Below, one piece after another: positions 20,238 to 27,648 of a DNA stretch of 64,000 nucleotides (positions within the stretch are counted from its first letter, which is position 1; every line of letters begins with the position of its first letter). The position numbers and the translations under genes are program-made. The stretch is from Nitrospirota bacterium (GTDB taxonomy: Bacteria; Nitrospirota; UBA9217), in contig CAWBNQ010000011.1 in the NCBI GenBank assembly GCA_963790205.1, forward strand, positions 25,591-89,590, given 5' to 3'. The notes under the pieces are model-generated. The model searched no databases, was not told the origin of the DNA, and saw only the letters and a program-made list of their open reading frames with translations.

Positions 20238-20486
20238 ATGACGACGACGGTGCAGGAGATTGAACACAAATTGACCGAGCTTGTGGCTTCCCTTACGAAC
20301 CGCGACTTGGCGACCATCGGTCCCGACATGCCGTTCCAGGAACTGGGCATCGATTCGCTCGGTTTTGTCGAGATCCTGGTGTTCATTGAAAAGACTTTCA
20401 AGCTTCAGCTGATAGCGTCCGACCTGACGAAAAAGGACTTCGAGACCATCCATACGCTGGCGTCGTTCATCAGCAGATCGCGATAG
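20238..20486 (+). CDS. Acyl carrier protein (ACP2)
   Basis: LGIDSLGFVEI motif, 82 aa. Confidence 0.88.
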   Translation: MTTTVQEIEHKLTELVASLTNRDLATIGPDMPFQELGIDSLGFVEILVFIEKTFKLQLIASDLTKKDFETIHTLASFISRSR

Positions 20487-20498
20487 CCGGGAACCACT

Positions 20499-21821
20499 AT
20501 GTTACTATCGAAACGCAAGCGGTATCTCTCGGGTCCTGACTGGGTGATCAATACACTCGATCACCTGATGAAGGCCCGGACCTGCGCCGGGAACATGTCG
20601 CAGATCGTGCTTCTCTTCGATGCTCCTGTTGATGAGCAGGAGGTCCGGACAAGTCTGAACAGGTTCCTCAAACAGTTCCCCGTGCTGGAAGGGAGCGTGA
20701 CCCGGGACTTCAAGCTTACGCCCTACTGGGCCATTCCCGTAAAAAGCGGGCGTGATGTCGCGCTTGTTGTTCATCACGTGGACGACGCGTCGTCCTGGCA
20801 GGCGCTTAAGCCCTACCTGGAAAAGAGCGTCAACAAGCCGTTCCGGGACAAAAAGGACCATCTCGCGTTCCAGCTTTTTACCAGCCGGGACCGGGGCGCT
20901 CTTTCCATGACCTTTGATCACCGCATCTTCGACGCGCGCGGCGCGGAGCTGTTGTTGAACCTCTTTCAGCAGCACCTGAACGGAGTCGATCCGGCGCCCG
21001 GGGACATTACGTTCGCTTCGTCAATGGCCCTCACGCAATGGTCGAAAAAGTTCCTGGCAGGCAGGAACGTGAACCGCCGGATCATCGGGCTTTCGAAGTC
21101 AACGCCGGCAACCCTGCCGATCCCCGACGGCCTCGGCAGGCGCCACCGGTATCATCGTCTGTCGTTCAGCGAACAGGAAACAGCTTCCCTGTATGGGCGC
21201 GCCCACCAGGAAGCAGGATACCTGATGGAATCGCCGTACCTGCTTGCCGTCATCATACAGAGCATGCACGAGCTGTTCAGGGTCCGGAACCTGGAAGGCA
21301 ACAGCTACCTCATCCCCGTTACCCTGGACCTGCGCCCCAACAAGGACCCGCTGCAGGAGACGTTCTTTAACTACGTGTCCTACCTTTTTTATCAGGTCCC
21401 GGCGGGCGAGGTCGCCGATCGCAAGGGGCTCATTGCCCTGTTGAAGCAGCAGATGTACGACCAGGTGAAGTCGGGCTTTCCCAAGGACCTTGCGGAAGCA
21501 AGCCTGCTGACCCGCATCGCGCCTCTGCCCGCGCTGGGGAAGCTGCTGCATCTTCCGATGAAAGGGAAGATGGCCACGTTCGCGTTCTCCCATCTCGGGA
21601 AGAGCTCGTACCAGCACCCGCTGTTCATGAGCAGGAAGGTCATGGAACTTTTCCATATGCCGCGCGTTCCCGTGCCGCCGGGGCTCGGGTTCTTCAGCAA
21701 TTATTACAACAGCAGGCTCAGCCTGGTCATCTCCTATCTTGAGGGGCTGCTCTCGGATGAGGATGTGAAGGGCCTTGAAAAGGGGATTCGTGAACGGTTC
21801 GGCGCAGGGAGCGTCGCATGA
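20499..21821 (+). CDS. Stand-alone CoA-dependent acyltransferase / condensation-fold protein
   Basis: FDHRIFDARG (HxxxD) motif, plus LKQFPVLEG and IPVTLDLR segments typical of the condensation/CAT-like fold. Confidence 0.65.
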   Translation: MLLSKRKRYLSGPDWVINTLDHLMKARTCAGNMSQIVLLFDAPVDEQEVRTSLNRFLKQFPVLEGSVTRDFKLTPYWAIPVKSGRDVALVVHHVDDASSWQALKPYLEKSVNKPFRDKKDHLAFQLFTSRDRGALSMTFDHRIFDARGAELLLNLFQQHLNGVDPAPGDITFASSMALTQWSKKFLAGRNVNRRIIGLSKSTPATLPIPDGLGRRHRYHRLSFSEQETASLYGRAHQEAGYLMESPYLLAVIIQSMHELFRVRNLEGNSYLIPVTLDLRPNKDPLQETFFNYVSYLFYQVPAGEVADRKGLIALLKQQMYDQVKSGFPKDLAEASLLTRIAPLPALGKLLHLPMKGKMATFAFSHLGKSSYQHPLFMSRKVMELFHMPRVPVPPGLGFFSNYYNSRLSLVISYLEGLLSDEDVKGLEKGIRERFGAGSVA

Positions 21822-26072: not shown

Positions 26073-26170
26073 TCTCGCAAAGCTCGCCAAGTTCGCTAAG
26101 AGAAGCAAGACCTTTGGTTTAAAGCCAGGATTTAAAGATTTTCTTTGCGCCCTTTGCGTGCTCCGCGAGA
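26073..26170. repeat. 9-bp-periodic imperfect palindrome (REP-like)
   Basis: ctcgcaaag ctcgccaag ttcgctaag ... ctttgcgcc ctttgcgtg ctccgcgag, with TCTCGC/GCGAGA ends. Confidence 0.65.
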
Positions 26171-26214
26171 GACGCCTTTGTTTTTTGCTTCATCGGTCTT
26201 AAGGATATTAAATA

Positions 26215-27648
26215 ATGAAAATTCTTTTGATTAACCCCTTCGGCTCGAACTGGGTCGAGGGCATGGAAGACAAGACCGAGACCGCCATACGCATGGCCCC
26301 CATGGGCATCCTGTCGATCGCGGCATATCTGGAACAACAGGGCATTGACGTGGAGCTTTACGACTGCCGCGGGCCGGTCACCCTCGTCGGGACCGCCGAC
26401 GCTCTCGCCCGGGTCGCCGCTTTCAAGCCGGACATGGTGGGATTCACCGCGGTAACATCGAGCTTCTTGAACGCCTATCAACAGGCAGAGGACATAAAAA
26501 AGACAACGCCGCATATCAAGACCGTCGTGGGCGGCGTGCATGTGTCCGCCTTGCGCGGAAAGATCCTGGAACGATTCCCGGCTATCGATTACGTGGTGAC
26601 CGGCGAAGGCGAGAAGGCCATGGCCGAACTCGCCGCAGGCGCACCGCCGAAAGCCATTCAGGGCCTGGTGTACCGTGAAGGCGCTGAAATAAAGGACAAC
26701 GGCCTCAGGACCGAGCTCTGCGAACTCGACAGCCTTCCTTTTCCGGCTTACCACAAGCTTGAGGGTTTCCCCAGGCGCTTCGAAGCCGCCTTGTTCAACT
26801 ATCCCAAGGCGCCGACGGCAACGATCATTTCGAGCCGCGGCTGCCCATACCAGTGCTCCTACTGCGACCGGTCGGTGTACCGCCGGAGCTTCCGGTTCAA
26901 TTCAGCGGAATATCTGTACGAGCATATGGCATTCCTGAAAAAGAACTTCGGCATCAGACACGTGTTCTTCTACGACGACCTGTTCACGTTCAACCGCGAG
27001 CGGGTCGAAAAATTCTGCGGTCTTTTGCGCGACAAACCGCTGGGCATGACCTTTAATTGCGCCGTGCGCGTGGGGCATATCGATGACGCGCTGCTCAAGA
27101 TGCTTAAAACATCGGGCTGCTGGATGGTAAGCCTCGGCATCGAGTCGGGAGCACCGGAGATCCTGGCGCGCCACAAGACCAAAGTTGATTTCAACGAGAT
27201 GAAGACCACGGTCCGGCGCATCCAGAGGGCGGGCATCAGGGCCAAGGGCCTGTTCATGATGGGTCTTCCGGGCGAGACCGAAAAGACCATAAAAATGACA
27301 ACGGACTTCATCAACGGCCTGGAGCTTGACGATATGAACATGACCAAGTTCACGCCGTTCCCGGGGTCGCCTATCTATCAGACTATCCAAGAGGAAGGCG
27401 CGTTCACGGAAAAGTGGGAGCTGATGAACTGTCTCAATTTCGTTTACGTGCCCCGGGGGATCGAATCGAAAGAACGGCTTGACGACCTCTATAAGCAGTT
27501 TCTCAAACAGTTTTACACCGGCAGAAACTGGATCAGGAAGTTCGGCCCGCTCATGTTCAAATCTCCGCACAGCACACTGCGGATGATCAAGGGCATGCCG
27601 ACCTTCCTGAAGATCAGGAAGGATTTTGAACCGAAGGGGAACGGTTAA
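26215..27648 (+). CDS. B12-binding radical SAM protein
   Basis: MAPMGILSIAA...MVGFTAVT...VVGGVHVS B12 domain and SRGCPYQCSYC. Confidence 0.88.
   Translation: MKILLINPFGSNWVEGMEDKTETAIRMAPMGILSIAAYLEQQGIDVELYDCRGPVTLVGTADALARVAAFKPDMVGFTAVTSSFLNAYQQAEDIKKTTPHIKTVVGGVHVSALRGKILERFPAIDYVVTGEGEKAMAELAAGAPPKAIQGLVYREGAEIKDNGLRTELCELDSLPFPAYHKLEGFPRRFEAALFNYPKAPTATIISSRGCPYQCSYCDRSVYRRSFRFNSAEYLYEHMAFLKKNFGIRHVFFYDDLFTFNRERVEKFCGLLRDKPLGMTFNCAVRVGHIDDALLKMLKTSGCWMVSLGIESGAPEILARHKTKVDFNEMKTTVRRIQRAGIRAKGLFMMGLPGETEKTIKMTTDFINGLELDDMNMTKFTPFPGSPIYQTIQEEGAFTEKWELMNCLNFVYVPRGIESKERLDDLYKQFLKQFYTGRNWIRKFGPLMFKSPHSTLRMIKGMPTFLKIRKDFEPKGNG

Follow-up and report, generated by a model that had tools for sequence, protein, structure and literature searches.

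A candidate carrier-based acyl-tailoring cassette with a condensation-fold protein and cobalamin radical SAM enzymes at the end of a Nitrospirota lipid cluster

Introduction

Can a handful of genes at the end of a lipid cluster form a unit of its own, and what would such a unit do with an acyl group? The question is raised by a stretch of 64,000 nucleotides from a Nitrospirota bacterium (GenBank assembly GCA_963790205.1, contig CAWBNQ010000011.1, positions 25,591 to 89,590 of the forward strand), here called the window. Its positions 20238-27648 encode, in this order, a stand-alone acyl carrier protein (ACP2), a condensation-fold protein with an HxxxD motif, a FAD-dependent oxidoreductase, a cobalamin-binding radical S-adenosylmethionine enzyme (B12-rSAM 1), an acyl/aryl-AMP ligase of the ANL family and a second B12-rSAM (B12-rSAM 2). 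An initial annotation, made from the sequence alone, had taken the six genes for a self-contained and possibly portable module that has its own candidate promoter and no ketosynthase (KS), and that loads an acid on ACP2, modifies it there and transfers it to an acceptor.

As judged from gene content across related loci, the core of this cassette is the pair of carrier protein and condensation-fold protein, accompanied nearly always by the ligase, usually by at least one B12-rSAM and often by the flavoenzyme, and it can exist apart from the ketosynthase KS2 and its Cys-less partner, the chain length factor CLF2. Loading of an acid on ACP2, modification on the carrier and transfer is the best-supported logic for it, and we assign this reading a probability of about 0.5. 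The cassette is a compact entry point for the study of such chemistry, having a single ligase, carrier and transferase-like enzyme and occurring in natural variants with none, one or two B12-rSAMs.

Conservation and Distribution of the Cassette

The cassette was compared with approximately 60 related loci, and the genomes of the relatives include many metagenome-assembled ones. One set of 25 loci comes mostly from Nitrospirota, with some from Geobacterales, Desulfuromonadales and Pelobacteraceae, and displays mostly 58-81% identity (42 and 51% in the two most distant cases); 18 further loci were added from the phylum of the window. A search for related loci by exact peptide patterns is biased to close relatives, which was offset by a full HMMER search, by looking up distant representatives and by searches of whole genomes.

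In close and mid-range relatives the order KS2, CLF2, ACP2, condensation-fold protein and flavoenzyme is essentially invariant and is almost always continued by the ligase. The carrier and the condensation-fold protein form an almost inseparable pair in the approximately 60 loci, down to 23-28% identity, and the ligase is nearly always present. Only close relatives have the flavoenzyme consistently, and several distant versions lack it. The number of B12-rSAM genes varies as well: both are found in approximately 14 loci, one in approximately 13 and none in three to four, and a lone B12-rSAM gene can either precede or follow that of the ligase. The co-conservation on which the initial annotation had let its proposal depend is strong.

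No KS is encoded among the six cassette genes. This holds locally, as had been pointed out, but is not typical, since KS2 and CLF2 stand directly before ACP2 nearly everywhere except in the window and one relative. Only in these two (the relative being locus L021) are CLF2 and ACP2 separated by genes for a glycosyltransferase of family GT1 and a fusion of an alpha/beta-hydrolase with an rSAM-SPASM protein (17079-20076 on the forward strand of the window, identified with Pfam). In locus L072, the only other one that has this pair, it is located before KS2. Locus L073 lacks the two genes and contains, between CLF2 and ACP2 (7162-7445 on its reverse strand, corresponding to window positions 19960-20240), a 3' remnant of the hydrolase-rSAM gene that codes for PPEACxICPRF; the remnant implies that the pair was lost in L073 rather than inserted in the window. 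A recent insertion of the two genes is therefore too simple an account, as the remnant in L073 and the position in L072 together point to gain, loss and movement. KS2 and CLF2 are probably functionally linked to ACP2.

The distribution of the cassette was followed by means of the condensation-fold protein, which is encoded in 39 of the 401 genomes of the phylum, 28 of these being among the approximately 64 genomes of the family of the window. High-scoring orthologues of another enzyme of the same cluster, a B12-rSAM recognised by the model TIGR04072, were found in 40 of the 401. The two co-occur tightly: 36 genomes have both, 3 only the condensation-fold protein, 4 only the rSAM and 358 neither (Fisher p = 3e-43), and the three genomes having the condensation-fold protein without the TIGR04072 orthologue are 71-88% complete. 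With 36 of the 39 genomes carrying the orthologue, the cassette appears to belong to the main cluster as an accessory branch rather than to be a free agent. Among the Desulfobacterota the condensation-fold protein occurs in 5 of 401 genomes. On these distributions the cassette is a patchy accessory branch of one specific cluster type, and it has probably been exchanged between phyla.

Distant Versions and a Carrier Fused to a Radical Enzyme

The proposed portability stands in part. The core is found detached or rearranged in genomes without CLF2, and may be called semi-autonomous, but within the phylum of the window it is mostly confined to genomes with the TIGR04072 orthologue of the main cluster. 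The distant relatives, at 23-35% identity, illustrate the range of arrangements. Locus L085 has the order ACP, KS, PlsC, ligase, ACP, condensation-fold protein, TIGR04072-like rSAM (351 bits), flavoenzyme and acyl-ACP thioesterase, and L087 has TIGR04072-like rSAM, ACP, condensation-fold protein, flavoenzyme and ligase, with no KS within 6-8 kb. In L089, LpxL, ACP, KS, CLF, ACP and the condensation-fold protein follow one another and the ligase gene is convergent, and L090 consists of ACP, condensation-fold protein and ligase. No CLF2 orthologue was found anywhere in three of the genomes with distant versions (G404, G641 and G443). L061-L063 have the order KS2, CLF2, LolA, DUF3261, MMPL, ACP, condensation-fold protein, flavoenzyme, ligase and rSAM, the ACP itself being detected only in L063, and in L074 the same six genes as in the window follow a divergent DUF4388 gene. 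Detached units of carrier and condensation-fold protein adjoin genes for Ser/Thr protein kinases in two unrelated contexts (L029/L030 and L087).

A further distant version is that of the metagenomic relatives L091 and L092, where the genes run ACP, LpxL, a fusion of rSAM-SPASM and ACP, condensation-fold protein, TIGR04072-like rSAM (328 bits), ligase and HpnR-like rSAM (223 bits), so that the order B12-rSAM, ligase, B12-rSAM is kept at 28% identity. In the fusion (L091, 1337-2734) a carrier domain of the ACP2 type, 31% identical to ACP2 (E 5e-11), is joined to an rSAM-SPASM half, which shares 50% identity (E 1e-122) with the corresponding half of an rSAM-SPASM-FabZ fusion encoded in the cluster of the window. 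One radical enzyme is thus fused to two different partners, a hot-dog (FabZ-like) dehydratase here and an ACP2-type carrier in L091, and the latter fusion ties radical chemistry to carrier-bound acyl intermediates. It is the best available evidence supporting the view that the radical chemistry of the cluster would take place on carrier-bound acyl chains and that ACP2 would be the relevant carrier.

The Condensation-Fold Protein

All six open reading frames lie on the forward strand exactly where the initial annotation had placed them, and each of the six gene identities holds on the grounds of Pfam, NCBIfam and motifs, complemented by AlphaFold and Foldseek for the HxxxD protein. ACP2 (20238-20486, 82 amino acids) is a stand-alone carrier with the phosphopantetheine site GIDSLG (PF00550 PP-binding, 1.6e-12). 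The protein encoded after it (20499-21821) is likewise a stand-alone protein, of 440 amino acids, with the sequence DHRIFDARG at residues 140-148. No Pfam or NCBIfam family, such as PF00668 or PF03007, matches it at E <= 0.01, and a profile search of the PDB gave only a marginal match to the motif of E2 acyltransferases (E 0.56), whose DHRxxDG the sequence weakly resembles. Residues D140, H141, D145, A146 and G148 are invariant across 32 homologues of 60-83% identity. Compared to the HHxxxDG motif, the second His and the Asp are kept, the first His is an Asp and the Gly is shifted (DAxG).

What the family models did not recognise was resolved at the level of the fold. The AlphaFold2 model (mean predicted local distance difference test, pLDDT, 78.6; predicted template modelling score, pTM, 0.84) gave 286 Foldseek matches in the PDB at E <= 1e-3. 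The top 50, with template modelling (TM) scores of 0.52-0.72, are nearly all condensation (C) or epimerization (E) domains, PapA5 or SgcC5. The leading condensation-family matches (E 4e-20 to 1e-17, TM 0.6-0.72, 11-16% identity in the fold alignments) include AzeD, the C domains of SrfA-C and CDA, the E domains of tyrocidine and gramicidin synthesis, PapA5, SgcC5, CmnI and TRI3. The model thus predicts the fold of nonribosomal peptide synthetase (NRPS) condensation enzymes, two-lobed, pseudo-dimeric and like chloramphenicol acetyltransferase, confirming at the fold level the earlier assignment. The family is sizeable and unrecognised by curated models: when grouped at 50% identity, the matches of the HMMER search with E <= 1e-3 form 683 clusters, 163 of them at E <= 1e-30. 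In some genomes of the family of the window (G206, G215, G227 and G343) the gene is split or has in-frame stops, owing perhaps to decay of the copies or to errors of assembly.

The top Foldseek match, with the highest TM score (0.72), is AzeD (PDB 8S6L), a dehydratase, and E domains score high as well. It could accordingly be proposed that the condensation-fold protein is a non-canonical modifier (a dehydratase, epimerase or cyclase) of an intermediate that is free or bound to ACP2, and that off-loading is left to the LpxL-like, PlsC-like or thioesterase enzymes of the cluster, which does hold such acyltransferases and a thioesterase. AzeD and the cassette protein are both discrete, are of approximately 430-440 amino acids and have another residue in place of the first His of HHxxxDG (Asp in the cassette protein), a replacement that is frequent in the clade of stand-alone C proteins founded by AzeD. 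The identity to AzeD is, however, just 14%, and the scores of canonical C domains, PapA5 and SgcC5 are nearly the same. Moreover, AzeD acts on a free small molecule, a bicyclic carbamate of an NRPS pathway, and has no carrier protein as a partner, whereas the present family is almost always encoded beside a carrier protein and its catalytic His and Asp are invariant. A role as a modifier is considered unlikely.

Ligase, Flavoenzyme and Radical SAM Enzymes

The ligase (24633-26060, 475 amino acids; PF00501 2.7e-56, PF13193 1.4e-20) has intact motifs SSGTTGASKG, YGIIE, TGD and SGKIKR, the last with the C-terminal GK, and by these signatures is a complete ANL adenylate-forming enzyme. Its closest solved relatives, with which it aligns end to end, are coenzyme A (CoA) ligases of 485-520 amino acids: oxalyl-CoA synthetase, MenE, the malonyl-CoA synthetase MatB, benzoate-CoA ligase and FadD13. 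The insertion of approximately 20 amino acids in the N-domain of fatty acyl-AMP ligases (FAALs), which are of approximately 550-600 amino acids, is not found in the 475-residue enzyme, whose length leaves no room for it.

Since relatives of the ligase use small acids (oxalate, malonate, o-succinylbenzoate) and the enzyme also aligns with NRPS adenylation domains, the polarity of the pathway might be reversed. The ligase would then load a small, perhaps amino or hydroxy, acid on ACP2 as the acceptor, and the condensation-fold enzyme would acylate it from fatty acyl-ACP1 or acyl-CoA in the manner of a starter C domain, giving a lipo-acid head group to be modified by the rSAMs and the flavoenzyme. 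The usual role of C domains is to link a donor with an acceptor that is bound to a carrier, and ACP2 is weakly similar to the carriers DltC and AsbD. On the other hand, the best NCBIfam matches of the ligase are fatty and aryl acid ligases, with no DltA or amino-acid-specific model near the top, and the position of KS2-CLF2 directly before ACP2 in most loci argues for extension on ACP2. We regard the reversed polarity as quite improbable.

The flavoenzyme (21818-23026, 402 amino acids; PF12831, 9.8e-80) offers fewer clues. Its AlphaFold2 model (pLDDT 93) matches only generic flavoproteins at TM <= 0.56, among them class A monooxygenases, geranylgeranyl reductase, fumarate reductase and halogenases, and in a sequence search of the PDB the match was confined to the N-terminal dinucleotide-binding motif.

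In both B12-rSAMs (23200-24636 and 26215-27648) an N-terminal B12-binding domain (PF02310) is joined to a radical SAM core (PF04055) that has a CxxxCxxC motif, CAYTCSFC at residue 216 in the first and CPYQCSYC at residue 210 in the second. B12-rSAM 1, which starts with GTG after an AGGAGG ribosome-binding site, has HpnR as its best NCBIfam match (residues 1-433, E 3e-67, 227 bits, cut-off 650). B12-rSAM 2 is closest to HpnJ (186 bits, cut-off 578), with ApyD and BchE also close. It reaches 163 bits with the Sden_1168 P-methylase family (cut-off 575), and its closest PDB entries are the AprD4 core and TokK. Neither enzyme reaches the equivalog of a characterised methylase, all matches being far below the cut-offs. 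B12-rSAM 1 resembles the hopanoid C-3 methylase HpnR, a class B rSAM, over nearly its full length and in its lipid context; it differs in its score, in the lack of hopanoid genes nearby and in its substrate, which would be a carrier-bound acyl group. Where present, B12-rSAM 1 is the most conserved cassette gene among close relatives, with identities of 86-90% as opposed to 58-81% for the condensation-fold protein, suggesting strong constraint although it is dispensable across the family.

The two enzymes may not be methylases at all. They could form C-C bonds in the acyl chain, cyclise it or rearrange it, so that the cassette would build an unusual carbon skeleton. The nearest relatives of B12-rSAM 2 (HpnJ, ApyD, BchE and the AprD4 core) favour this, as do the TIGR04072-like rSAM genes that adjoin the condensation-fold gene in the distant versions L085, L087 and L091 and the co-occurrence of the TIGR04072 orthologue with the cassette; such chemistry has been proposed for the TIGR04072 enzyme of the anammox 'ladderane' clusters, or for BchE/HpnJ. 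Yet both enzymes are dispensable in many otherwise complete cassettes, which fits decoration better than the building of a scaffold, and the best match of B12-rSAM 1 is a lipid C-methylase. Skeleton-building rSAMs are, on balance, a doubtful explanation.

A Proposed Load, Modify and Transfer Pathway

How the parts could work together is set out here for the preferred reading, in which an acid is loaded on ACP2, modified and transferred; we infer the individual chemical steps from homology and gene association. The ligase would adenylate a carboxylic acid and attach it to ACP2 as a thioester, and its nearest relatives suggest a small dicarboxylic, an aryl or a medium-chain acid. Where present, as here, KS2 and CLF2 would extend the starter bound to ACP2; their position directly upstream of ACP2 in other loci indicates that the unit is probably primed and then extended. 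The flavoenzyme may tailor the tethered chain, for which redox chemistry at C-C/C=C bonds is likelier than oxygenation in apparent anaerobes. Up to two cobalamin rSAMs would act on the chain, the HpnR-like B12-rSAM 1 most plausibly by C-methylation of an unactivated carbon. Finally, the condensation-fold enzyme would employ its His-Asp pair to pass the completed acyl group on from ACP2, attaching it through a hydroxyl or amino function to a lipid or sugar backbone putatively made by the products of the upstream GT2-DUF2062, LpxL-like, PlsC-like and deacetylase genes. N-acylation following the polysaccharide deacetylase step, similarly to NodB/NodA or LpxC/LpxD, is an attractive guess.

The association of the genes, the variable number of B12-rSAMs (as expected of optional tailoring), the C fold, the carrier-rSAM fusion, the conserved promoter-like element and the likeness of the cluster to that for aryl polyene lipids favour this logic, and the ligase accompanies the pair of carrier and condensation-fold protein also in the distant loci L085, L087, L089, L090 and L091. 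Several observations weigh against it. The ligase is CoA-ligase-like and without a FAAL-type insertion, so loading of a carrier is not indicated by its sequence, which does not discriminate between CoA and ACP2 as the recipient. In L029/L030 the carrier and the condensation-fold protein stand alone, adjoined by a Ser/Thr kinase gene and with no ligase nearby. The best structural match of the condensation-fold protein, AzeD, is a stand-alone C-family dehydratase that transfers no acyl groups, the first His of HHxxxDG is replaced by Asp, and off-loading could fall to the LpxL-like and PlsC-like acyltransferases and the thioesterase that the cluster also encodes. No specific structural relative of the flavoenzyme is among the Foldseek matches (TM <= 0.56), and B12-rSAM 2 is as similar to non-methylating B12-rSAMs as to methylases.

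Two details of the product suggested by the initial annotation have fared less well. A doubly methylated unit is conjectural, as the B12-rSAMs are optional (none, one or two) and B12-rSAM 1 alone resembles a known lipid methylase (HpnR, 227 of the 650 bits required). An oxidised unit is likewise conjectural, given a flavoenzyme that matches only generic folds and hosts that are apparently anaerobes.

A broader interpretation is that the cassette is the core of an unrecognised class of carrier-dependent lipid-tailoring modules. HpnR-like and TIGR04072-like rSAMs would methylate or C-C-couple unactivated carbons of a fatty or polyketide chain tethered to an ACP, and a new clade of stand-alone C-fold enzymes would attach it to an outer-membrane glycolipid, so that anaerobic Nitrospirota and some Desulfobacterota would gain undescribed branched or cyclised lipids with none, one or two modifications. 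We offer this as a tentative possibility. If the load, modify and transfer logic holds, the condensation-fold proteins would make up a new clade within the C family, acyl chains bound to a carrier would be established as substrates of cobalamin rSAM enzymes, and genes might be assigned to branched lipids from anoxic settings that are so far unexplained. If it fails, the cassette would be no more than an ordinary accessory to a lipid cluster that is itself uncharacterised.

A Promoter-Like Element Upstream of ACP2

The junctions between the genes of the cassette are short in places: ACP2 and the condensation-fold gene are separated by 12 nt, and the condensation-fold and flavoenzyme genes as well as the B12-rSAM 1 and ligase genes overlap by 4 nt, which indicates translational coupling. 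The pair of B12-rSAM 1 and ligase is flanked by gaps of 173 and 154 nt. A search of the 161-, 173- and 154-nt gaps with Rfam revealed no riboswitch or other RNA element, the sole match being the PyrR leader downstream.

The candidate promoter of the initial annotation gains support. It is a TTGAAT-17 nt-TATAAT element at 20109-20137 on the forward strand, non-coding in the window and ending 100 nt before the start codon of ACP2. It is the sole perfect TTGAWT-N16-18-TATAAT on the forward strand of the window, and both strands together hold 2 matches where 0.00 are expected; the other is TTGAWT-N17-TATAAT at 41184-41212 on the reverse strand. With at most one mismatch the element precedes ACP2 in 15 of 42 related loci, compared with 16 of 3000 random 250-nt windows drawn from the same loci, the locus counts being inflated by the common ancestry of the loci.

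The element occurs in two settings. It is non-coding in 7 of the 15 loci, including the detached cassette of L074, and in the other 8, from among L064-L072, it falls within the final codons at the 3' end of CLF2, whose translation is IELIRCIRYNC. The synonymous choices ATT-GAA-TTA and TAT-AAT are retained in the loci that were read by eye, which is not a systematic count. In the window, the end of CLF2 itself (VETIRCLGFNCY) no longer has the motif, and the non-coding copy of the element still reads VELMQTIRYNSVL in one frame. The element looks either like DNA that serves for coding and as a promoter at once or like what is left of a former CLF2 3' end. It appears to be old, to move with ACP2 and to be kept with or without coding constraint, which fits a real internal promoter. 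In the spacer between CLF2 and ACP2, five loci (L003, L004, L005, L013 and L025) have short tandem heptamer-like repeats, with runs such as GGAAGGT/GGGAAGG and TGAAGGT/TGAAGAC, some of them as inverted pairs.

Comparison with Known Systems

In the aryl polyene lipid (APEL) pathway, the ligase ApeH loads the starter on the carrier ApeE and a KS-CLF pair extends it (the parts being ApeH, the carriers ApeE/ApeF, the KS-CLF ApeO-ApeC, the transferases ApeD/ApeJ and the export proteins ApeL/M/N). A glycerol-phosphate-GalNAc backbone receives two chains, which are delivered on ACPs and attached by PlsC-type and glycosyltransferase (GT)/acyltransferase enzymes, and LolA-like, MMPL and DUF3261 proteins export the product. 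The cluster of the window resembles this pathway in its KS-CLF pairs, two ACPs, adenylating starter enzyme, PlsC-like and LpxL-like proteins, GT2-DUF2062, thioesterase and export genes. The gene set of the aryl polyene (APE) family, including KS-CLF, ACPs, ketoreductase (KR), dehydratase, adenylating enzyme, LolA-like protein, MMPL and DUF3261, is complete in the window together with L027, which covers the region upstream of it. In contrast to APE clusters, which are without a condensation-fold enzyme, a PF12831 flavoenzyme and radical SAM proteins, this cluster has all three. It also differs in having a second, FadD/MenE-like ligase beside the PaaK-like one, and no gene for the supply of an aryl starter, which in the APE family is of the 4-hydroxybenzoate type, was recognised in the window and L027.

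The closest functional parallels to the cassette itself are SgcC1/SgcC2/SgcC3/SgcC/SgcC5 of C-1027 and FadD28/Mas/PapA5 of phthiocerol dimycocerosate, which we take to be carrier-based systems for loading, tailoring and transfer. The proposed parallel lies in an adenylating enzyme, a discrete carrier, tailoring by a flavoenzyme on the carrier and a stand-alone C-fold enzyme that esterifies or amidates an acceptor. The cassette shows no relationship to these systems at the sequence level, has the motif DHxxxDAxG and would tailor by cobalamin rSAMs, within a type II KS-CLF lipid cluster of apparent anaerobes. A C-fold family that curated models do not recognise, putative tailoring by cobalamin rSAMs and the type II KS-CLF setting in apparent anaerobes set the cassette apart from the known systems. 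In its logic it also resembles the loading of a starter on ApeE by ApeH.

A FAS-like, 'ladderane-type' cluster found in anammox bacteria and Deltaproteobacteria, and common to Kuenenia, Desulfotalea, Geobacter and Pelobacter, has been described (Rattray et al., 2009; PMC2649909). By its gene content the cluster of the window is of this type: it shares the TIGR04072 protein above cut-off, a phytoene-desaturase-like gene, a PaaK-like ligase, a polysaccharide deacetylase, KS partners without the Cys and rSAM-SPASM enzymes. The six-gene cassette is not described in that study, and for ladderane-type clusters outside the anammox bacteria there is still no product known in the literature.

The Surrounding Lipid Cluster

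The cassette forms the 3' end of a cluster of approximately 38 kb. Upstream of the window, in L027, lie genes for a KR, a phytoene-desaturase-like flavoprotein, a KS, a PlsC-type acyltransferase, the PaaK-like ligase and the rSAM-SPASM-FabZ fusion; the C-terminal part of the latter occupies positions 3-587 of the window on the forward strand, the whole gene being at 24693-26177 of the contig. The window continues with genes for LolA-like, MMPL and DUF3261 proteins, a thioesterase, KS1 with its Cys-less partner, a B12-rSAM and the TIGR04072 'lipid biosynthesis B12-binding/radical SAM protein' (8224-9624, forward strand; 623.4 bits against a cut-off of 360). These are followed by GT2-DUF2062, the LpxL-like acyltransferase, ACP1, a HemN-like rSAM and the polysaccharide deacetylase, and then by KS2 and CLF2 (14749-16991, forward strand, identified with Pfam), GT1, the hydrolase-rSAM-SPASM fusion and the cassette. 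An aryl-polyene-lipid-like, outer-membrane glycolipid cluster of an apparent anaerobe would be the best explanation for this gene set.

At its downstream end the cluster meets the pyr operon (pyrR, pyrB, pyrC, carA and carB). A 10-bp terminator-like hairpin at 27845-27870 was considered as the terminator of the cassette and rejected, because it sits within a PyrR-binding leader ahead of pyrR (27757-27879, forward strand; RF00515, E 9.4e-05, 50.1 bits, slightly short of the gathering score, which is 54). The hairpin thus belongs to the pyr operon and marks the end of the lipid cluster.

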